Assembly (NCBI GenBank): GCA_965205975.1
Contig: OZ242195.1
Coordinates: forward strand, 5,344,001 to 5,408,000
Origin: Candidatus Latescibacterota bacterium
Lineage (GTDB): Bacteria > Latescibacterota > UBA2968
Direction of reading: 5' to 3'
DNA: 64,000 bases
Shown here: in pieces, positions 45,151 to 56,791 of the stretch
How positions within the stretch are numbered: position 1 is the stretch's first letter
How the letters are laid out: every line of letters starts with the position of its first letter
Made by a program: the position numbers and the translations under genes
Notes under the pieces: generated by a model
Told to the model about the DNA's origin: nothing
Databases searched by the model: none
What the model saw: only the letters and a program-made list of their open reading frames with translations

Positions 45151-45361
45151 TGTAGTGTGGGTATTTTAGGATAGTTAAGTAGTCATTCTGGAGTTTTTTG
45201 GGTATATTCATAGGAAGGATAGTGGCGTCAAAGGAATGGGCTGCCATGTCCTATGTCCTGTCATCGCGGCATGGTCCCTGTTTACACCATACAGGGACAT
45301 GCTTTAGCCGCGATCCAGAAGGTTTTTCGCTATTTTGTCAGATAAAAGGAGGTGGTTCGGC

Positions 45362-45988
45362 ATGAAAGGTGTTTTCATTTATTGGGACAATTCCAATATT
45401 TTCCATGAAGCACAACGGCTGGCAGAGGAACGGCGCGAAGGCCCCAATGCCCGTTATCGCGTGCGTATTAACTTTGATAATATACTGCGTCTGGCGCATG
45501 CTGACCGCCCTTTGAAGAAGGCTCTTGCCGCTGGCTCTGTGCCGCCGGAGATGCGCCAGTTGTGGAATCGGATGGAGAGCAAGGGGGTGGAAGTCCATCT
45601 GTTTGACCGGGGTGAATCTGCGCGTGGTGAACAGGAAATGCCTGACCGGGTGTTGCAGTTGCGGATGCTGGAAGATGCGCTGGATTATAACGGCAATCCG
45701 GGTATTGTGGTGTTGTTGACGGGCGATGGCGCAGGTTATCTGGAAGGCGCGGGTTTTCACAGTACGTTGGAGCGCATGCACAAGCGCGGCTGGCGGGTGG
45801 AAATTCTTTCCTGGAAGCATTCCTGCAACCAGCGAATGCGCAAGTGGGCGCAGGAAAACGGTGTGTTTGTGGCGTTGGACGACTTTTACGAGGCCATTAC
45901 ATTTATGGAACCGTCCAGGCCAGGGGCTGAGCTTGCTGTTCCACGCGATTCCGCAGAATTAGACTTGTCGAAAAGGCCAATGGCTTGA
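45362..45988 (+). CDS. NYN-domain (PIN-like) nuclease
   Basis: FIYWDNSN, EQEMPD, LLTGDG, GWRVEILSW, FVALD; AGGAGG RBS. Confidence 0.85.
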   Translation: MKGVFIYWDNSNIFHEAQRLAEERREGPNARYRVRINFDNILRLAHADRPLKKALAAGSVPPEMRQLWNRMESKGVEVHLFDRGESARGEQEMPDRVLQLRMLEDALDYNGNPGIVVLLTGDGAGYLEGAGFHSTLERMHKRGWRVEILSWKHSCNQRMRKWAQENGVFVALDDFYEAITFMEPSRPGAELAVPRDSAELDLSKRPMA

Positions 45989-46023
45989 TTGGGGAAGCAA
46001 ATTAACAAGTCGTAGGTATAGAA

Positions 46024-46803
46024 ATGTCAAAAATAAAAAGATGGACGCGACAGGAGTTGCTTGTAGCGTTTAGGCTTTACTGTCAAATACCATTTGGCAG
46101 ATTGCACGCACGAAATCCAGAGATTATTAAGATTGCCGAACTCATTGATAGAACGCCATCCGCATTGGCAATGAAATTAACGAATATTGCAAGTCTTGAT
46201 CCGGTTATAATCTCGACGGGTCGCAAAGGGTTATGGCGGGCATCTAAAGCGGATAGAGAAATGTGGCAAGAAATGCAAAATAATTGGGAAAATTTTGCAT
46301 TAGAGTCAGAAAACACTATCAATTCTATTCTGCAAGGTAGCGAGTCGTATGTTGCGGAAAATGAAAGTGCATCTGAATACCAGGATTACACTGGTCAGGA
46401 TAGAATTGTGCCAACCAAAACACGAATTGGTCAGAAGTTTTTCAGGAAGTCGGTGATGAGTGCTTATAGATATAGGTGCTGTATCACTGGCCTTGCCATG
46501 CCAAAACTCTTAGTAGCGAGTCATATTGTGCCGTGGCGTGATGATCCAGGGAATAGACTCAACCCGAGGAATGGGTTGGCTTTGTCAATACTTCACGACA
46601 AGGCGTTTGATCTTGGAATGATCACGATTAATGATGATATGACTGTTCGGGTATCACGGAAGGATTTTAGGGTGAAAAATAAATTTTTTGTGACTGCTTT
46701 GAGAAACTATGACGGAAAAATGATAGAGTTACCAGATAAGTTTCAGCCACATGAGAACTTTCTTGCATATCATCGTGAAAGGATATTCACGGGAAACCGC
46801 TGA
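46024..46803 (+). CDS. HNH endonuclease (putative restriction endonuclease)
   Basis: WTRQEL..LYCQIPFG N-domain; RIGQKFFR, CCITGL, ASHIVPW, NGLAL..HDKAFD. Confidence 0.88.
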   Translation: MSKIKRWTRQELLVAFRLYCQIPFGRLHARNPEIIKIAELIDRTPSALAMKLTNIASLDPVIISTGRKGLWRASKADREMWQEMQNNWENFALESENTINSILQGSESYVAENESASEYQDYTGQDRIVPTKTRIGQKFFRKSVMSAYRYRCCITGLAMPKLLVASHIVPWRDDPGNRLNPRNGLALSILHDKAFDLGMITINDDMTVRVSRKDFRVKNKFFVTALRNYDGKMIELPDKFQPHENFLAYHRERIFTGNR

Positions 46804-46812
46804 GAAGAAAGC

Positions 46813-46878
46813 ACCGATCTTTGAAGAAGTCACTTGCCGTTGATTTTGTGCCACCAGAGATGCGCCAGTTGTGGAATC
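46813..46878 (+). pseudogene. degenerate 66-bp copy of the NYN gene segment 45504-45569
   Basis: 56 of 66 bases identical by manual ungapped alignment. Confidence 0.75.
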
Positions 46879-46879
46879 A

Positions 46880-47761
46880 TTAGATGAATTCTTGGCCGAT
46901 TTTCCATACCCCTTTCTCGCGGAAAGCGGGAATGGTCTGGCGGCGGGCGGCGTTGGTGATAGCAGGTGCAGAGAGTCCATTCTGTCTGATGTAATCCGAT
47001 AGCTTGATGATTGCCTCTCCCTTCAAATAGCTCAATCGCTTGTGCAACGATTCTGTGAGAGCCAGTGATAGAATTCCCTCCATCGTCCTGGTCGTTCTGT
47101 TATCTCCGTAGTCTCTGAATGCCCGATAGTACGTTTCTTTCTCCGAGTTGCGGATGATAAGGCGCGGTAGGCCGAGTTGCAGGAGTTGAAAGTTGATAAT
47201 GACCCGCCCCATGCGGCCATTGCCGTCGCAAAAGGGATGAATGGTCTCGAAATCCAGATGAAATCGGGCAATTTTATCTATGAAGTAAGTGTCGAGATCA
47301 CTGGAATACTCGACGAGGATATTATCTATCATGCGCTCTACATGCTCGGGTGCTGGCGCAATATGAGTGCCTACCCGCACGTATTCTCCCTGCTGGCGAA
47401 AGCGCCCTGCAATGTCATCGTTAATGCCGCCGATAAGCATTTGATGCAAGAGTAGTATCAGGTCTTTGTTCAGTTCGCTATCTTTGGCTCTGTTGCGCTT
47501 ATATTCTGTGACACGAGCCAGGTTTTTCGCCTCAAAGACTTCCCGCACAGATACATTCCGAGATAGCATCTGTTCCAACAGGATTTTCTCTGTTTCATTG
47601 AGGGTGAGGGTGGAGTTTTCAATGGCGTTCGAGTTGTACACGCTCTCAGGTACCTCTACTTCGTCAATCATCGACAGTAGCGATTCTTTACCCTGACGCA
47701 AGATATCGTACTCTCGTTTCAGATCTTGAATGCGGTTTTTTATCGGTTGTCTGCTTGCCAT
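46880..47761 (-). CDS. Fic family protein (class II, autoinhibited) with C-terminal HTH-like tail
   Basis: HPFCDGNGRMGR; inhibitory SNAIEN motif upstream of it. Confidence 0.92.
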   Translation of the reverse strand: MASRQPIKNRIQDLKREYDILRQGKESLLSMIDEVEVPESVYNSNAIENSTLTLNETEKILLEQMLSRNVSVREVFEAKNLARVTEYKRNRAKDSELNKDLILLLHQMLIGGINDDIAGRFRQQGEYVRVGTHIAPAPEHVERMIDNILVEYSSDLDTYFIDKIARFHLDFETIHPFCDGNGRMGRVIINFQLLQLGLPRLIIRNSEKETYYRAFRDYGDNRTTRTMEGILSLALTESLHKRLSYLKGEAIIKLSDYIRQNGLSAPAITNAARRQTIPAFREKGVWKIGQEFI

Positions 47762-47777
47762 ATCATTAGGATACCCT

Positions 47778-47860
47778 ATTCACTGTATATTGTCAAATTT
47801 TAGTGAATAGATAGGTCAAAATGGACGTCATTCACTGTATATTGTCAAATTTTAGTGAAT
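47778..47860. repeat. two identical 31-bp direct repeats, each with palindromic ends
   Basis: ATTCACTGTATATTGTCAAATTTTAGTGAAT at 47778 and 47830. Confidence 0.85.
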
Positions 47861-47944
47861 GGATGGGCAAAAAAGAGTGCCATTCACGGTTTTTTCAGGT
47901 TAAGTAGCGAAAATTTTGTATGTGAAAGCCTTTCAATATCGCTT

Positions 47945-48724
47945 TCACTCCTCGCGTGGCGCACCCGCCACTTGTAACGAAGTGCCGTGTATTTGATTGT
48001 GTTTTATATCGGGATATTCCTGCCATTGCCTTCCATCCAGCGTGTTGCCGCCAGCCTTGGGTGTGCGACCACCCCATTGCTTAAAGAAGAAAGCAACATT
48101 CTGCGCCTGACATTGATCGCGCAATTCACGTAGCCATTCCACTTTGACTGGACGTGCCCCCGGTCCGCTCTCTCCTCCGGCGATTATCCAATGAATATCC
48201 GTAAGATCCACCGTACCAAGTGCATCGAGTAACGGCTCGAATGAAACAAAGCGCGTTGAGGCGTTGGTCTGTCTCAAGTGACGTAGGCGCGTCATGGCCG
48301 CCGCGTTTTCGATGGAAACACCGAGCCAGATATGTGGCGGGGCGGACAGTCTCCCATAGCGTTGATGGACAAAATCGCGCATCAGCGAACTGCGCTTGGT
48401 CAGCACTTGATAGATGTGCCAATCCGCCTGCTCCATTGTATCAAATACACGATGGATGTACTGAGTTGGTATGTCCTTATGGAACAGGTCGCTCATCGAA
48501 TTGACAAAGATGAGTTGCGGACGCCGCCAGTGCCTGGGTTGCTCAAGGCGTTCGGGGCGAAGCGTGAGATCAAAACCCGTTTCAAAAGGGTTGCCCTTGA
48601 CGCCGCGGAAACGCTCCGATAATCGCTCGGCATAGCAATGGTCGCAACCCGCACTCACCTTTGTGCAGCCGGTGACCGGATTCCATGTGCTGTTGGTCCA
48701 CTCAATAGTGCTTTTACGCGACAT
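47945..48724 (-). CDS. DUF5131 / phage Gp37-Gp68 family protein
   Basis: IEWT..TWNPVTGCTKVSAGCDHCYA, IFVNSMSDLFH, LTKR, SFEPLL, GGESG, FFFKQWGG. Confidence 0.92.
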   Translation of the reverse strand: MSRKSTIEWTNSTWNPVTGCTKVSAGCDHCYAERLSERFRGVKGNPFETGFDLTLRPERLEQPRHWRRPQLIFVNSMSDLFHKDIPTQYIHRVFDTMEQADWHIYQVLTKRSSLMRDFVHQRYGRLSAPPHIWLGVSIENAAAMTRLRHLRQTNASTRFVSFEPLLDALGTVDLTDIHWIIAGGESGPGARPVKVEWLRELRDQCQAQNVAFFFKQWGGRTPKAGGNTLDGRQWQEYPDIKHNQIHGTSLQVAGAPREE

Positions 48725-48911
48725 GTAATCCCCCTATGTGCCACTTGAAGCGTCTAAAGATTACTGCACATAAGTATAGTTTGTTCTTGCCGAAAGAGCA
48801 AGTATGTGGTATTTTCTCTCAAAAAAAGATAGGTTATATTCGGCTTATGATACTCGGCTAATGTGATGATAAGCCGAAGTCCCGCCGGTTAGGCAAATTA
48901 ATCTTACGACC

Positions 48912-48926
48912 TTGACAAATTGTCAA
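48912..48926. promoter_or_regulatory. palindrome of back-to-back -35 hexamers between divergent genes
   Basis: TTGACA-AAT-TGTCAA; further IR TTCGGCTTAT/ATAAGCCGAA at 48839-48878. Confidence 0.45.
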
Positions 48927-48978
48927 TCTCAATCTAATTATATATGTCAACCTTTAATTGTACATTGGAGGTGGTTGC

Positions 48979-50106
48979 ATGAGTGAATCTCTTAATCAAG
49001 AGGTGTACAACCGCGATAGCAGTCCATTCAATGCACAAGTGTTTGATCTGTTTTGCAGCATTGGAGGTTTGACCTATGGACTAAAAAGGGCTGGAATCGC
49101 AGTCAACGCCGGTCTGGATATTGATGGTTCGTGCCGTTACGCTTATGAAAATAACTGCGAAGCGACTTTTATTGAAGCGGATATTAGAGAAATCTCTTTT
49201 TCAGATATTTCAAGGTATTTTAATGATGCGGAATATCGCGTGCTTGTGGGTTGCGCACCCTGTCAACCGTTCTCCAGCCACACAGCCAAAATGAAGTCTG
49301 GTGAGTCGGATTCAAGGTGGAACCTGATAGATGAATTTCTGAGAATAATTCTTGAGGGCAGACCAGAGATTATCTCTATGGAGAATGTGCCCCAACTCAT
49401 GGATAAGCCAATTTACAATAATTTTAAGCACGAGTTAGCCGATGCAGGATATAGTATTTCTGATGGGATTATATCCTGTGCCGGCTTCGGGGTTCCGCAA
49501 AGCCGAAGTCGCTTGGTTATGCTGGCATCTTTGTTGGGCAGAATTAATATGCCGAAATCCAACACCCAAAAGCCCAAAACGGTTAGGCAAGCAATTGGAC
49601 ACCTCGCACCTCTTGATCAGGGGCAATCAAACGAGGATGATTTTTTGCATGTTTGTTCTCGATTGGAGTCAATCAACCTAAAACGCATCCGGGCTTCTAA
49701 GCCCGGTGGAAGTTGGCGAGATTGGCCTACTGAATTATTGCCAGATTGCTACAAAAAAGATAGTGGCTTAAGCTATGGGAGCGTTTACGGGCGTATGCAG
49801 TGGGATAAGCCAGCACCTACGCTGACCACGCAATTTTATCGTTATGGAACTGGTCGCTATGGGCATCCAGAACAAGATCGTGCTCTGAGCTTGAGAGAAG
49901 GTGCAATTCTCCAAACTTTCCCCGAGGAGTATCAGTTTGTTGCTCCCGATGAAAAAGCGTCATTTTCGAGAATTGGCCGTCAAATAGGCAATGCTGTTCC
50001 GCCATCTTTGGCTTATGCTATTGGGAAAGCAATTACAGGTCATATAAAAAAAAGGGCAGCAAAAATGCTTGAAAGACTTAAGCTGTCTGTCTTTTTTAGT
50101 GCCTGA
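48979..50106 (+). CDS. DNA (cytosine-5)-methyltransferase 1
   Basis: DLFCSIGG, GCAPCQPFS, ENV, PQSRSR, LSLREGAILQTFP, QIGNAVPP; GGAGGT RBS. Confidence 0.93.
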   Translation: MSESLNQEVYNRDSSPFNAQVFDLFCSIGGLTYGLKRAGIAVNAGLDIDGSCRYAYENNCEATFIEADIREISFSDISRYFNDAEYRVLVGCAPCQPFSSHTAKMKSGESDSRWNLIDEFLRIILEGRPEIISMENVPQLMDKPIYNNFKHELADAGYSISDGIISCAGFGVPQSRSRLVMLASLLGRINMPKSNTQKPKTVRQAIGHLAPLDQGQSNEDDFLHVCSRLESINLKRIRASKPGGSWRDWPTELLPDCYKKDSGLSYGSVYGRMQWDKPAPTLTTQFYRYGTGRYGHPEQDRALSLREGAILQTFPEEYQFVAPDEKASFSRIGRQIGNAVPPSLAYAIGKAITGHIKKRAAKMLERLKLSVFFSA

Positions 50107-50133
50107 TAAATAGAAGAAAATGGAAATCACAGC

Positions 50134-51396
50134 ATGAATAGGGGCCTAAAATTTCTGGATCTTTTCGCGGGTGCTGGAGGGCTGTCCGAGGGATTTATAC
50201 AAGCGGGATTCGAGCCTGTCGCACATATTGAATCAGATAAAGCGGCATGTTTCACTCTACGCACACGGATGGCATACCACTATTTGAAGGACCGTGACAG
50301 GGTAGAACTGTATGCAGATTATCTGAATGGAACACTGAGCCGTCCAGATTTCTATGAACAAGTTCCGGAACGGATTATCGAATCAGTCATCGATGCCGAG
50401 ATAGGTGACAAAACACTGCCGGATATTTTTCGGCGGGTTGACGCTCTACTGGATAATTGTAGGCTTGATTTGATTGTCGGTGGGCCTCCTTGCCAAGCCT
50501 ATTCCCTAATAGGTCGTTCTCGTGATTTGAATAGTATGAAGGGGGATAAGCGTAACTATCTGTATAACTATTACGCCGAATTTTTGAAGAGGTACAAACC
50601 ATTATACTTTGTCTTCGAAAATGTCACCGGTCTTCTATCTGCTAGAAATGGGGATGGCAGCCGCTATTTTGACGCCATGCAAAGCCTCTTCCGCGAATGT
50701 GGTTACAAAACGGACTTCCTGAAGTTATCAGCAGAGGATTATGGCGTCCTACAGAGGCGAGAAAGAATCATTCTTGTCGGAAGAAAGGGTAAAATGACCG
50801 GCTTTTATCCAGAGCCAGACAAGTGGAATCCTAATGCCTGTGTCAGGGAAATATTCTGTGATCTGCCCATTATCGCCGCGGGTGAAGGCGACCCAGGCCC
50901 ATGCAATGTCAGGCCATATCTTGGAACATATCAGTATGAAGCAGGGATAAGAGATGACGAGCTTCCAGTCACTTGGCATCAAGCAAGACCTAATACGGAA
51001 CAAGACCTTGAAATTTACCGGAGAGCTGTTAATCTCTGGAATAAAGAAAAGACTCGTCTAAATTACAATATGCTTCCGGAGCATCTGAAAACACATAGAC
51101 ACCGAAACTCGTTTCTGGATAGGTTCAAAGTCGTCGCTGAGGATCTGCCGTTTTCTCATACTGTAGTTGCCCATATCGCCAAGGACGGTCACTATTACAT
51201 TCATCCGGACATTAATCAGAATCGATCAATCACACCTAGAGAGGCTGCGCGATTGCAGACATTCCCAGATGATTATTACTTTGAGAGCGTCAGATATGTT
51301 CCCGGACGCACGCCTGCTTTCAGTCAGATCGGCAATGCAGTGCCTGTGCTTCTGGCACGGAAAATAGCTGATAAATTGCAGGGGGTCTGGTTATGA
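50134..51396 (+). CDS. DNA (cytosine-5)-methyltransferase 2
   Basis: DLFAGAGG, GGPPCQ, ENV, QRRER, ITPREAARLQTFP, QIGNAVP. Confidence 0.94.
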   Translation: MNRGLKFLDLFAGAGGLSEGFIQAGFEPVAHIESDKAACFTLRTRMAYHYLKDRDRVELYADYLNGTLSRPDFYEQVPERIIESVIDAEIGDKTLPDIFRRVDALLDNCRLDLIVGGPPCQAYSLIGRSRDLNSMKGDKRNYLYNYYAEFLKRYKPLYFVFENVTGLLSARNGDGSRYFDAMQSLFRECGYKTDFLKLSAEDYGVLQRRERIILVGRKGKMTGFYPEPDKWNPNACVREIFCDLPIIAAGEGDPGPCNVRPYLGTYQYEAGIRDDELPVTWHQARPNTEQDLEIYRRAVNLWNKEKTRLNYNMLPEHLKTHRHRNSFLDRFKVVAEDLPFSHTVVAHIAKDGHYYIHPDINQNRSITPREAARLQTFPDDYYFESVRYVPGRTPAFSQIGNAVPVLLARKIADKLQGVWL

Positions 51397-53546
51397 GCAC
51401 AAGCGGAACATACAGAATAAGACCGGCTGGTCGGCATATCCTGACCATTGGCCGTGACCTGATTCAGGATGTCTATGCGGCGGTCGTAGAACTGGTGAAG
51501 AATGCTTATGACGCCGATTCTCCTGATGTAAATATCAAATTTATGGCCAATCCTGACCACAGCGGATATTCCATCATTATCTCAGACCATGGTCACGGAA
51601 TGTCCAGGGATACTGTCATTAACAAGTGGATGGTGCCGTCAACCCGAGACAAACTTGATCGGCGCACGAGTCCTTCCGGAAGGATTATGCAGGGACGTAA
51701 GGGGGTGGGGCGCTACGCCGCATCCATTCTCGGCACAGACTTGCTTCTCGAAACAGTGACTGCTGAAGGCGAGAAGACAACGGTCTATGTTGAGTGGGAG
51801 AATTTCGAGGCTGCCGAATATCTGGATGACGTGGAAATCCTCATTGAAACCACTGAGGTATCCGAACCGCCGGGTACACAACTGACTATGGCTGGGGATA
51901 TTGAGCTTCTTGCTGACTGGGACAAGAAACAGTTCGAAAAACTTCGTTTTGAACTAAAAAAACTGAAATCGCCTGTGAGTGCTGCTCTTAGCGATGATGA
52001 CTTTTGTATCATTCTGGAGGTTGAAGGTTTTCCTGCCGTAGAGGACATTAGTGAAACTGTCGAGTCATTTCCGATCTTCGATCTCTTTGATTATAAGATA
52101 GCTGGCAAAATTAGTGCTGATGGCAATGGTACCCTGACGTATTCGTCTCAGAAAGTTCGTAATATCGCCGATGAGAGTATTACTTTTGATTTTGGTCAGC
52201 CTACCGAATGCGGTGAACTTGATATTGATGTACGGGTGTATGACCGTGACAAAGATGCTATTGATTCTTTGATAGGACGTGGTCTTAAAGATGAATCTGG
52301 CAACTATGTCGGAAAACTTCAAGCAAGGCAACTTCTCAACGCTTCCAACGGCATAGGTGTTTACCGAAACGGATTTCGTATCCGGCCGCTGGGTGATCCA
52401 GACTTTGATTGGTTGAAACTGAACGAGCAGCGTGTTCAAAACCCATCGCTCAGAATCGGTAGCAACCAAGCAATCGGATATGTGCAGATTCAGTCAGATG
52501 AGCAATCCGGTCTAATTGAAAAAAGTGCCAGAGATGGACTCAGGGAAAATGCGGCCTTTAGTCATCTAAAAGAAATTACCACAAAGGTCATTGCTGAACT
52601 CGAAACGCGACGGTTCGAGTTCAGAATGAAAGCCGGTTTGAGCAGGCCTGTTATTAAAGTCGAACGCGAATTGGAACGCCTTTTTTCGTTTCAGGAACTG
52701 AAACAGGATGTTATGGAAAGACTTATCAGATCTGGAATTGATCCCAAAACCTCTAATAAAATTATTGATATCATTAGTCGTGAAGAAGAGGATAAGAATA
52801 AAATTGCCGCTGAAATCCGTCAAGCTGTCGCCATTTATCAGGGACAAGCTACCTTGGGGAAAATCATTAACGTGATCCTTCACGAAGGCAGACGGCCACT
52901 CAATTACTTCCGAAACCAAATACCAAACCTTCGGTACTGGTACAAATCATTTCGGAAAACTGAGAATTTAGAAAATCTTGAGAAATCTCTATCAATTGTT
53001 GAGGGCATAGGCATGAATGCAGAGTTTTTTGTCAATCTCTTCAACAAACTTGATCCTCTGGCAGCGGGGAAGCGCTCTAAAAGAGAGTCCCTTGCGCTGA
53101 AGAAAGAGATAGAGAACGTGCTTGCTGTCTTTGAACAAGAAATGAAATCTCAGAAGGTAATCGCTGAAATTACAGGATCCGACGACTTTAGATTTTCCTC
53201 TTGGCGTCAAGATATCAGTGCGATTTTCACAAATCTTGTGGACAACAGTCTGTACTGGATGAACGAAAAGAATACGCCCAAGCGAAAAATCATTATTGAA
53301 CTCGCAACAAACAAGAATTCTCTTCTTCAGATTGATTATCATGACACCGGGCCAGGTATTGAACCTGACCACATTGCAAGTGAAGTGATTTTTGAACCTG
53401 AGTTTACCACCAAACCATCTGGTACTGGTCTGGGGCTGGCAATTGCAGGTGAGGCTGCCGCACGTAACGATCTTGAATTGAAAGCTTTTGAATCTCAAGA
53501 AGGGGCTTGGTTCAGGTTACAACCTAAAACGGAGGATGAGGAATGA
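51393..53546 (+). CDS. MORC/MutL-type GHKL ATPase fused to a C-terminal histidine kinase
   Basis: ELVKNAYDA, DHGHGM, GRKGVGR, PGT; VYRNGFRI.P.G middle domain; H-box ILHEGRRPL, NLVDNS, DTGPG, FTTKPSGTGLGL; no TM segment. Confidence 0.9.
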   Translation: MSTSGTYRIRPAGRHILTIGRDLIQDVYAAVVELVKNAYDADSPDVNIKFMANPDHSGYSIIISDHGHGMSRDTVINKWMVPSTRDKLDRRTSPSGRIMQGRKGVGRYAASILGTDLLLETVTAEGEKTTVYVEWENFEAAEYLDDVEILIETTEVSEPPGTQLTMAGDIELLADWDKKQFEKLRFELKKLKSPVSAALSDDDFCIILEVEGFPAVEDISETVESFPIFDLFDYKIAGKISADGNGTLTYSSQKVRNIADESITFDFGQPTECGELDIDVRVYDRDKDAIDSLIGRGLKDESGNYVGKLQARQLLNASNGIGVYRNGFRIRPLGDPDFDWLKLNEQRVQNPSLRIGSNQAIGYVQIQSDEQSGLIEKSARDGLRENAAFSHLKEITTKVIAELETRRFEFRMKAGLSRPVIKVERELERLFSFQELKQDVMERLIRSGIDPKTSNKIIDIISREEEDKNKIAAEIRQAVAIYQGQATLGKIINVILHEGRRPLNYFRNQIPNLRYWYKSFRKTENLENLEKSLSIVEGIGMNAEFFVNLFNKLDPLAAGKRSKRESLALKKEIENVLAVFEQEMKSQKVIAEITGSDDFRFSSWRQDISAIFTNLVDNSLYWMNEKNTPKRKIIIELATNKNSLLQIDYHDTGPGIEPDHIASEVIFEPEFTTKPSGTGLGLAIAGEAAARNDLELKAFESQEGAWFRLQPKTEDEE

Positions 53547-54604
53547 GTGTGTTGCGACTGCTTATAGTTGAGGATGATGAACAGGATCTATCTACCTGTA
53601 GAGATACTGTCGAAAGATACGAAAATGAAAAGCAGCGCAAAGTCGAACTCGTCGAATGCAAGGATGTCAGTGCGGCTTTCGAGTGCCTTGACAATTCCTT
53701 CGATGGTGCGATTATTGACCTGAAGCTCGGGGATCAGGGCGATGAAGGCAATCAGGTTATATGTAAAATCGAAGATTCACAGTTCCGGATTCCAGTCTTT
53801 ATTTTAACTGGAACCCCTGTCAACACGGAGTTTACACATATAAAAGTTTTCAAAAAAGGGGACTCTGGAGCAGGATACGATGATTTATTGGACAGATTCT
53901 GGGATATTTATAACACGGGGCTAACTCGTATCATGGGTGGCAGGGGCATCATCGAACAAACATTGAGCCAAGTATTTTTGGGAAATCTCCTCCCACAGAT
54001 AGATACATGGATACATTATGGTGAGGACGATTCTTCCAGAACTGAAAAGGCTCTTCTTCGGCACACGCTGAATCATCTGCTTCAGCTTCTTGACGATGAC
54101 GCAGACAGTTGCTTTCCCGAAGAAGTCTATCTGCACCCGCCGCTTAATGACGATATCCGGACTGGTAGCCTTGTTAAAGAAAAGGAAAGTGGGAAGTGGT
54201 TTGCTGTCATGAGTCCAGCCTGCGACCTTGTCGTGAGGGAAGATGGCAGCCGTAATACTGACAGGATTCTTATTGTCGAAGTTGATCTTGGAACGACGTT
54301 ATTTCCGTGGTTTGATGATACAAATCTGAGTAAAACCAGAAAGGGAGAGTTGAAACGAGCATTCGGGAACAACAAATCAGCCTATCATCACTGGCTTCCT
54401 AAGACGGATTTCTTTGAAGGCGGTTTCCTCAATTTTAGAAAACTTTTCACTTGGGAAATTGAACAATTCCAAGAAAAATTCCACACCCCTCCTGAAATAC
54501 AAATCTCGCTATCTTTTGTGAAGGATATTGTGGCGCGTTTTTCATCATACTACGCTCGTCAGGGACAGCCAGATATCGATTTTGACAGATTTATCAACTC
54601 TTGA
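53543..54604 (+). CDS. receiver-domain protein with uncharacterised C-terminal domain
   Basis: LLIVEDD, AIIDLKL, ILTG, FKKG; C-terminal SPACDL...RFSSYYARQGQPD. Confidence 0.85.
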   Translation: MSVLRLLIVEDDEQDLSTCRDTVERYENEKQRKVELVECKDVSAAFECLDNSFDGAIIDLKLGDQGDEGNQVICKIEDSQFRIPVFILTGTPVNTEFTHIKVFKKGDSGAGYDDLLDRFWDIYNTGLTRIMGGRGIIEQTLSQVFLGNLLPQIDTWIHYGEDDSSRTEKALLRHTLNHLLQLLDDDADSCFPEEVYLHPPLNDDIRTGSLVKEKESGKWFAVMSPACDLVVREDGSRNTDRILIVEVDLGTTLFPWFDDTNLSKTRKGELKRAFGNNKSAYHHWLPKTDFFEGGFLNFRKLFTWEIEQFQEKFHTPPEIQISLSFVKDIVARFSSYYARQGQPDIDFDRFINS

Positions 54605-54747
54605 AATAGGCATACAGGAAGTTGCAGGATTGAAGTTCGCTACATTTCGATGGGTTCACGTTTTTTAACTCACCTCCACACCCATTCCACCATATCCTGT
54701 ATCTTCTTTTCGAATCGCTCAATCAACGTATTTCCTATTCTCAGGTC

Positions 54748-55014
54748 TCATTGTTTTTCGATAGCCTCGGGCGCAATAGCAGTCGGCTGACTTTCCAGAT
54801 AGAGCGTATCATAGCTCAGATCTAACTCGCCTGGCCATTCCACGGAACCTGCTACTACACGGACTGCCTGGAAGGTGGCGCGATTCTGAAGGCGCACAAA
54901 GACGCCGCGCTGGAGATAAGGCTTCACATCGAATATCCGCTGTTCACCATTCTCAAATATTAATTCCAGTTGATAATCTTCGAGTGGGCGTACTTGCTTG
55001 ACATAGGGATTCAT
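54748..55014 (-). CDS. DUF2442 family putative antitoxin
   Basis: V.PLEDYQL...FENGE.R.FDV.PYL...W.GELDL..DTLY. Confidence 0.8.
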   Translation of the reverse strand: MNPYVKQVRPLEDYQLELIFENGEQRIFDVKPYLQRGVFVRLQNRATFQAVRVVAGSVEWPGELDLSYDTLYLESQPTAIAPEAIEKQ

Positions 55015-55936: not shown

Positions 55937-56791
55937 CTAATTTTTCAACACAATGAGGATGCGCTGACCGACGAGCAAGGGATCGGAAAAGGAGATGGTG
56001 AGGGTTTGGGCTTCTTTATCCTCGCTGAGTGCGTATTCTTTGTCTTTGCTCAGTTTGCCATGGTCGTCGCATACGGCGGCGAGTTCGCCCTGTACGGTAA
56101 TGTTTTCTCCAATGGACACTTTCTTAACGTCGGTGTTGTCAACATCGGGGAAATTTATAATTTTGTAGTTTTTGCGAATCCTTCGCCATGTATGGAGATA
56201 CCCCTGTTCTTTCAGATTATCTTCGATGCCGACATAGACGAGGACTGAACTGATAATTTCCTCAGCATCCTTAAGGTCTTCTTTGGTGACCTGGAGGTCT
56301 TCTTTGGTAACCTTAAGGTCTTCCTGGGTAACCTTAAGATCTTCCTGGGTAGCCTGAAGGTCCTTATGAGCTTTTTCGAGGGCTTCTGTTACGCGTTGAA
56401 GGCGATTGGTTTGCTCGAAGAGGCTGTTGCGGAGGCTGTCGCGTGCGGCTGCCACCTGTTCGAGATCACCTCTCAGAGTGGTGGTGAGACGCCGGTATTC
56501 TTTCATCTCATTGGTAAGGCGGTGGAGGGTGGTCAGCAAAACTTTATTTGATGTGCTGGTACTATCCATTTGTGCACGCACAGAATCGATGCGGACATTT
56601 AGTCCTTCGACCACCATATTTAGAGAGTCTATCAGTGCTTCATCGCGTTTGGCTTCTTCCTCTATTTGCATGACGTAGGGACTTTCTTTAATAATTTCCT
56701 CTTCGCTGGGCAAAAACGCGATGTACAAAAGAAGGGCTACTGCGATGGCTGCAATGCCAATTACCAGGATGATTTGCTTGTTGTTCTGCAT
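55937..56791 (-). CDS. membrane-anchored coiled-coil protein with tandem heptad repeats
   Basis: N-terminal TM; DLQATQE-DLKVTQE-DLKVTKE-DLQVTKE; GGAGGT RBS. Confidence 0.75.
   Translation of the reverse strand: MQNNKQIILVIGIAAIAVALLLYIAFLPSEEEIIKESPYVMQIEEEAKRDEALIDSLNMVVEGLNVRIDSVRAQMDSTSTSNKVLLTTLHRLTNEMKEYRRLTTTLRGDLEQVAAARDSLRNSLFEQTNRLQRVTEALEKAHKDLQATQEDLKVTQEDLKVTKEDLQVTKEDLKDAEEIISSVLVYVGIEDNLKEQGYLHTWRRIRKNYKIINFPDVDNTDVKKVSIGENITVQGELAAVCDDHGKLSKDKEYALSEDKEAQTLTISFSDPLLVGQRILIVLKN

Follow-up and report, generated by a model that had tools for sequence, protein, structure and literature searches.

Here we describe a pair of adjacent genes, encoding a histidine kinase fused to a paraMORC-type GHL ATPase and a receiver protein, in a 64,000-nucleotide stretch of a Candidatus Latescibacterota genome (assembly GCA_965205975.1, contig OZ242195.1, positions 5,344,001 to 5,408,000; hereafter the window). 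We propose, with moderate confidence, that the pair forms a phosphorelay-controlled defence switch with a toxin-fold output. Its architecture is known from computational work; new here is a structural handle on the output, as the receiver protein's C-terminal domain is predicted to adopt the MazF/PemK/CcdB fold. The conserved unit consists of a C5 DNA methyltransferase (MTase2), the paraMORC/histidine kinase and the receiver protein, joined in many loci by Vsr.

A first-pass annotation of the window had read four genes as one operon. These are MTase1 (48979–50106, + strand, 375 amino acids (aa)) and MTase2 (50134–51396, +, 420 aa), both assigned to the C5 DNA methyltransferases (Pfam PF00145), the kinase (51393–53546, +, 717 aa; Pfam and NCBIfam assignments) and the receiver protein (53543–54604, +, 353 aa; called as an open reading frame (ORF)). 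All four ORFs are present in the sequence, as are the 27-bp gap between the methyltransferase genes and the ATGA overlaps at the MTase2/kinase and kinase/receiver junctions. Both methyltransferases match Pfam DNA_methylase (E 1.6e-54 for MTase1 and 8.7e-56 for MTase2), with the PCQ and ENV motifs intact in each, as annotated.

The evidence for a toxin-like output comes from the last part of the receiver protein, residues 203–339 (54149–54559, +). Residues 189–349, folded alone from a 67-sequence alignment, gave a model with a predicted local distance difference test score (pLDDT) of 90.8 and a predicted template-modelling score (pTM) of 0.85. Compared with 48,161 solved chains, this model had MazF, PemK, Kid or CcdB proteins as all of its top 11 matches (Z 11.2 to 8.8), led by 8zws (Z 11.2, root mean squared deviation (rmsd) 2.9, 103 aligned residues) and including CcdB 1vub (Z 10.1). 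The type III toxins CptN, ToxN and AbiQ followed (Z 7.1 to 4.5), with unrelated folds at 4.5 or below. Foldseek returned only the MazF/CcdB fold family among the PDB rows listed (best E 2e-3), and PemK-like proteins came first among viral models. The fold searches matched no helix–turn–helix (HTH) or other DNA-binding fold to the domain, in agreement with its annotation as a non-HTH output, and the predicted toxin fold is consistent with the effector role that had been suggested for it. The likeness to MazF, PemK, Kid, CcdB, ToxN and AbiQ lies in this predicted fold; the cassette protein differs from MazF-type toxins in its fusion to a receiver, the lack of an antitoxin gene, about 40 extra residues and its own PxCD and RQG motifs. 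All of 126 diverse homologues have G208, P225, C227, R339, G341 and P343; D228, H283, F298, K327, R332, Y337 and Q340 are kept in 93–99% of them.

Relatives of the domain were sought more widely. Sequence searches of the receiver or output domain against the PDB gave nothing useful, and a search for standalone output domains, which covered short forms, found only apparent fragments of the same family, as judged by length and name. In the ESM Atlas, unnamed clusters of 244, 242, 167 and 118 aa score 0.90–0.94 against the output region and may be standalone members of this MazF-fold family, and a lead at 0.77 points to a Response_reg_2 cluster. Genes for more distant relatives of the output domain likewise follow a GHKL kinase gene and have a C5 methylase as neighbour. 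A distant clade of the system in the phylum of the window (loci L113 and L115, and the broken L114 and L117) has the order kinase–receiver–methylase and an output motif of PHCH against PACD here, with only the Cys kept. No report of a MazF-fold receiver output was found in the literature searched, most subscription papers and supplements being outside its reach. For this output or system, PMC8011034, PMC2292703 and Ambrosia (10.1101/2025.09.30.679545) were the only relevant sources to emerge; passages of the Tiamat preprint, PMC7824862, PMC7159879 and 10.64898/2026.02.27.708494 had nothing to add.

The remainder of the receiver protein comprises a receiver domain (residues 1–127; 53543–53923, +) and a linker (residues 128–202; 53924–54148, +). 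The former is predicted by AlphaFold2 and fold search to have the receiver fold (Z 14.3, rmsd 2.2, 112 aligned residues) and contains E10/D11, D59, T89 and K105, so that the acidic pair, phosphoacceptor Asp, Thr and Lys of the annotation are all in place; among 126 diverse homologues, all 126 have D59 (53717–53719). When the whole protein was used as the fold query, only receiver domains came back. The linker is helical in the model, with W156, R173, E194 and Y196 conserved, and is a candidate auto-inhibitory element. A weak match to the PADLOC model PDC-M60B was given by 33 of 73 receivers, and in the three that were checked it paired residues 1–91 with a 158-position model. We rejected an identity with PDC-M60: the match is to the generic receiver part, and the partner models do not cover the cassette proteins. 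A word search of the available text of 10.1101/2024.01.29.577857 found no mention of PDC-M60.

The kinase contains HATPase_c_3 at residues 29–141 and HATPase_c at residues 607–712 (Pfam), and E33, N37, H497 and the G boxes are kept in 69 of 69 aligned homologues. The H-box histidine H497 (LHEG; codon 52881–52883) therefore has, like D59, an invariant place in its alignment, leaving both residues of a His–Asp relay intact, and the H-box reads HEG in 63 of the 66 homologues in which the motif was read. Judged by hydropathy, with a maximum of 1.17 in a 19-residue Kyte–Doolittle scan, the kinase is soluble; its annotation as a soluble protein with two GHKL-type ATP-binding modules and an H-box is borne out. 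The further label of MORC-type ATPase was correct as to the GHKL ATPase. The strict MORC motif of the S5 domain, GhXhhpXXRhl as defined in the available text of PMC2292703, occurs in 0 of 69 kinase homologues (a form shifted by one residue occurs in 68 of 69), and the ATPase is therefore paraMORC-like rather than MORC. Residues 1–420 show weak matches to HtpG and MORC2/3, and a motif suggests a middle S5-like domain.

To place the cassette in other genomes, we used 151 related stretches from a GTDB scan; counts of cassette loci here and below refer to the best 80 of the 151, with loci that have too little flank left out of each denominator, and are not independent owing to kinship among many of the loci (Poribacteria, Latescibacterota). 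Nearest to the window are loci from Ca. Latescibacterota and one Poribacteria bin. The kinase gene lies directly upstream of the receiver gene in 75 of 79 loci; in three of the remaining four, the receiver ORF is truncated. Among 90% clusters the receiver has 1544 relatives, and 50% clusters gave 407 representatives at E ≤ 1e-30; the kinase tree, built by a quick method, mixes phyla. Full-length copies were found in 6 of 151 genomes of the phylum of the window and in four records of a plasmid collection; a phage collection gave no match. Linkage of the kinase and receiver with a C5 methylase extends across many phyla, an MTase2 orthologue being the gene immediately before the kinase in 53 of 65 loci (50 near full length). 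Of the proposed four-gene unit, MTase2, kinase and receiver are recurrent, and MTase1 is not, its orthologue occurring in 1 of 80 loci.

Several observations weigh against a toxin switch. The fold was matched with a predicted model, identity is 3–13% and Foldseek E-values lie above 0.001; hhalign of the output domain against 18 PemK proteins was not significant (probability 0.5%), and Pfam PemK (PF02452) was matched by 0 of 67 family members. The catalytic residues of MazF are Arg29 and Thr52 in the available text of PMC8887465, and the equivalent columns are variable here in a register that is approximate, resting on a 9-column match and inspection by eye (position 218, K in 23% and E in 14%; position 248, E in 49% and D in 21%). 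Kid is reported, in the portion of its literature consulted, to use residues other than the MazF Arg and Thr. A shared fold does not demonstrate function, and no PADLOC model covers the cassette.

The variability of the MazF catalytic positions would suit a regulator, in which a detoxified MazF fold binds RNA, DNA or protein and controls the methylase, Vsr or neighbouring restriction–modification (RM) systems. Such a role fits the persistence of the pair without MTase2 and the type I or III RM genes within the flanks of 39 of 80 loci, a count that has no background control and for which the type III Mod and Res clusters were assigned by visual inspection; control of RM systems is also the subject of speculation in the available text of PMC8011034, and control of transcription is proposed for the receiver of the Ambrosia system in that of 10.1101/2025.09.30.679545. 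However, the searches found no HTH output, the invariant Cys and Arg with the near-invariant Asp and His resemble a catalytic or ligand site, and no constant regulated partner accompanies the pair, since some copies (L056, L068 and L111) have no RM gene in their flanks. We consider a regulator possible but rather unlikely. For a toxin-fold effector, because the output domain lacks the MazF catalytic Arg and Thr, either an active site of its own (C227/D228/H283/R339) or the poisoning of a protein target, as by CcdB, is likely.

MTase1 has a separate history. Apart from the copy in the window, 23 matches to its gene turned up in 151 genomes, and 14 of these were examined. In 11 of the 12 orthologues with at least 75% identity (76–95%), the gene is followed by an ORF of 570–711 aa for a GHKL nuclease; the twelfth, L098 (at the same place as L004), is followed by a 126-aa stub and then by the cassette. 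All five nucleases tested, one of them from a distant locus, exceed the NCBIfam cut-off for BbrUII/HgiDII (NF050001). L004 keeps the 126-aa nuclease stub, as seen in its DNA alignment with the window, and in the window the same alignment shows the stub reduced to about 14 codons (50065–50106, +) that now encode the 13 C-terminal residues of MTase1. In this relic a repeated KL marks the point where the nuclease start meets the G2-box region; the junction sequence also occurs in L003, upstream of MTase2, and in the intact gene of L097, and the nuclease of L099 starts with nearly the same seven residues, by comparison at the protein level only. No BbrUII-type nuclease was found elsewhere in the genome of the window.

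With a nuclease partner in 11 of 12 relatives and an orthologue in a single cassette locus, MTase1 is thus the orphaned methylase of an unrelated BbrUII/HgiDII-type RM system, which it still serves in close relatives and whose nuclease gene is deleted here, and lies outside the conserved cassette. From the series of stub and relic, and the same junction upstream of MTase2 in L003, it follows that a single event in this lineage placed the cassette over an older restriction system, whose remains are decaying. The idea that two methylases form one system, perhaps for an asymmetric site, is ruled out by the same linkage, relic and occurrence. As for specificity, M.HgiDII methylates GTCGAC in the available text of PMC5867850, and GTCGAC has an observed/expected ratio of 0.02 in the genome of the window; this rarity assigns no specificity to MTase1, because all four GTMKAC words are equally rare. 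Genome-wide ratios are 0.02–0.04 for GTMKAC, 0.07 for CTAG, 0.18 for GTGCAC and 0.55 for CTTGG/CCAAG, the genome has four further C5 methylase genes elsewhere, and motif avoidance assigns a recognition site to neither MTase1 nor MTase2.

MTase2 usually stands first in the cassette but is dispensable. Its best PADLOC model is DrmMII (PDLC02649, 549 bits), the site of which is CCWGG. Among the 12 of 65 loci without MTase2, another C5 methylase is nearby in four and a fragment in one; in L024 and L063, a different and longer C5 methylase (662–672 aa) stands upstream of the kinase and receiver genes in its place. Seven genomes with the kinase and receiver genes and no methylase in the flanks gave no MTase2 match at E ≤ 1e-20, in a search whose query did find distant methylases in three other genomes, the completeness of the seven not being given. 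The kinase key residues are complete in all seven, and those of the receiver in six, the other being truncated. One plasmid copy also lacks a neighbouring methylase.

On the quick kinase tree, two clades are found among the methylase-less forms, one of four members (support 100) and one of two (support 99). Of the key residues checked, 13 in the kinase and 15 in the receiver, these forms have all, apart from the truncated receiver of L067. The ratio of non-synonymous to synonymous substitution rates (dN/dS) is 0.09–0.12 at dS 0.7–1.2 in the four-member clade, no higher than in methylase-bearing pairs (0.05–0.23). The kinase and receiver are under purifying selection in lineages without MTase2, although recent parallel losses of MTase2 are conceivable.

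These data bear on an RM-like reading close to that of the first-pass annotation, in which C5 methylation would serve as the mark of self, with the ATPase as sensor of unmethylated sites, the receiver protein as restriction effector and the two methylases of the window as one system. The position of MTase2, overlapping the start of the kinase gene, speaks for it, as do the occurrence of Vsr near 43 of 76 loci, the other C5 methylases in four of the 12 loci without MTase2 and the paraMORCs of RM systems described in the available text of PMC2292703. Its two-methylase part is refuted by the origin of MTase1. The methylase-less clade, which is conserved, would not be expected to tolerate an effector that is triggered by its own unmethylated DNA, and seven genomes have the pair with no MTase2 match; in Ambrosia, moreover, methylation gave phage no protection and was no self mark, as far as the available text of 10.1101/2025.09.30.679545 shows. 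Simple protection by self-methylation is unlikely because the pair is under purifying selection in lineages without MTase2, which weakens the annotation on this point, and we regard the RM-like reading as improbable.

The frequent presence of Vsr, and the cooperation of Vsr and MutL in very short patch repair (PMC2292703, available text), might instead indicate maintenance of the methylome, the MutL-like ATPase acting with Vsr on methylase-made T:G mismatches and reporting damage through the relay, with no part in defence. Vsr was not found in the genome of the window with six Vsr queries, nor in the other 33 of 76 loci, and a repair role would leave both the patchy distribution in defence hot spots and the toxin-fold output unexplained. 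We consider it very unlikely. MTase2 and Vsr are, in our assessment, usual travelling partners of the switch rather than a required antidote.

The nearest described architecture is that of HEF_HK paired with Response_reg_2 (PF19191/PF19192), a paraMORC system of two-component-like type. In the available text of PMC8011034, it is found in 644 regions with C5 methylases and Vsr, no known domain is recognized in the receiver C terminus and the work is computational, without experiment. The cassette shares with it a soluble kinase made of HATPase_c_3, an H-box/DHp and HATPase_c, an adjacent atypical receiver, an upstream C5 methylase and a downstream Vsr (here in the 53 of 65 and 43 of 76 loci given above). 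It differs in the H-box (HEG here, HEF there), in the length of the kinase (717 aa against 993–1012 aa) and in that of the receiver protein (353 aa against 544–629 aa). The kinase does not match PF19191 at E ≤ 0.05 and the receiver protein does not match PF19192; some homologues carry PF00072 instead. Four PF19192 proteins, however, sit behind kinases that match the cassette kinase profile (E 6e-49 to 4e-45), and their C termini match the output profile weakly (domain E 6e-7, 5e-6, 2e-3 and 1e-2, in a small database) and share the xxCD and terminal RxG motifs. We therefore place the cassette, on sequence grounds, as a shorter sister clade of HEF_HK/Response_reg_2, and the predicted MazF fold probably extends to the whole class.

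Ambrosia (10.1101/2025.09.30.679545) likewise combines a DNA methylase, a HATPase histidine kinase and a receiver and, in the available text, its phage defence needs the kinase and the receiver Asp. We set it apart by published description: its methylase is an N6-adenine enzyme and both methylases of the window are C5, its output is a winged HTH in place of a predicted MazF fold, and it has an XRE regulator and a required type IV HNH nuclease, whereas the cassette has no XRE gene and no constant HNH gene (5 of 80 loci), and no small regulator cluster was found to recur beside it. The paraMORC ATPases of RM systems (PMC2292703) resemble the cassette in having a GHKL ATPase at the N terminus, with methylase and Vsr genes as neighbours; in the cassette the place of the nuclease is taken by a kinase and receiver, and the main text of that paper, as available, mentions no kinase fusion or receiver. 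The kinase–receiver–methylase architecture is already in PMC8011034 and Ambrosia has been tested; it is the output fold that is new.

The block is surrounded by NYN, HNH, Fic, DUF5131 and DUF2442 genes, in support of the defence-island setting of the annotation. Its statement that no restriction endonuclease is present holds inside the block; the nuclease relic lies at the end of MTase1, and an HNH endonuclease gene (46024–46803, +; PF13391, PADLOC HNH 415 bits) 2.2 kb upstream shares the island. We rejected this HNH as the nuclease of the cassette, its family being no constant part of related loci. In L036, L038 and L072 a gene of the same family replaces or interrupts MTase2 or the kinase beside the receiver, an arrangement that recalls the Ambrosia gene set. 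Positions 45335–55014 form a variable defence hot spot bordered by a thiamine-enzyme-like gene on one side and two conserved downstream genes on the other; genomes of the same genus carry other defence genes here in place of the cassette, the contents varying among BbrUII-type RM, Fic, DUF5131, NYN, HNH and ATPase pairs. Other neighbours of related loci are GmrSD, AIPR, ApeA-HEPN, Cap4 nuclease, Fic and AAA_21. The DUF5131 gene (47945–48724, −) matches the PADLOC candidates PDC-M41B/PDC-M30B (E about 1e-103), with no partner gene evident within the window, and a copy in L099 is apparently fused within a 556-aa ORF. A direct repeat of about 35 bp, in two copies at 47780–47861 upstream of the Fic gene, is perhaps a duplicated promoter, and a 288-aa membrane-anchored protein has a seven-residue tandem repeat of coiled-coil type (56250–56370, −).

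Collectively, we infer that the kinase–receiver pair is a conserved mobile cassette that probably acts against phages or other incoming DNA. Its GHL ATPase clamp would sense an intracellular sign of invasion. The signal could be a DNA end, DNA of an unusual kind or an anti-restriction protein made by a phage, and in the last case the cassette would guard neighbouring RM systems. The fused kinase would then relay phosphate from H497 to D59, and phosphorylation would switch the MazF/CcdB-fold domain held by the helical linker, either by activating it or, if phosphorylation is constant, by holding it off; the active domain would stop growth or destroy nucleic acid. More tentatively, and as a somewhat weaker proposition than the switch itself, the pair may represent a widespread immune class not described before, in which a clamp ATPase acts through His–Asp transfer on a self-inhibited MazF/CcdB-fold toxin with a new Cys/Asp/His/Arg site, the output domain capping the whole HEF_HK/Response_reg_2 class and two-component signalling replacing the antitoxin.

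Operons for paraMORC kinases and receivers have been described in hundreds of genomes, with no idea until now of what their output might be, and the predicted MazF/CcdB fold supplies a concrete candidate effector with named residues for mutation. The locus itself records a cassette overwriting an older restriction system and leaving an orphan methylase behind, a trap for the reading of operons from single genomes. If the proposed switch is correct, a toxin fold that is normally held by an antitoxin would here be under a two-component relay, which would constitute a new gating of an abortive-infection effector and make the pair a tractable system in which to learn what is sensed by bacterial MORC-like ATPases.

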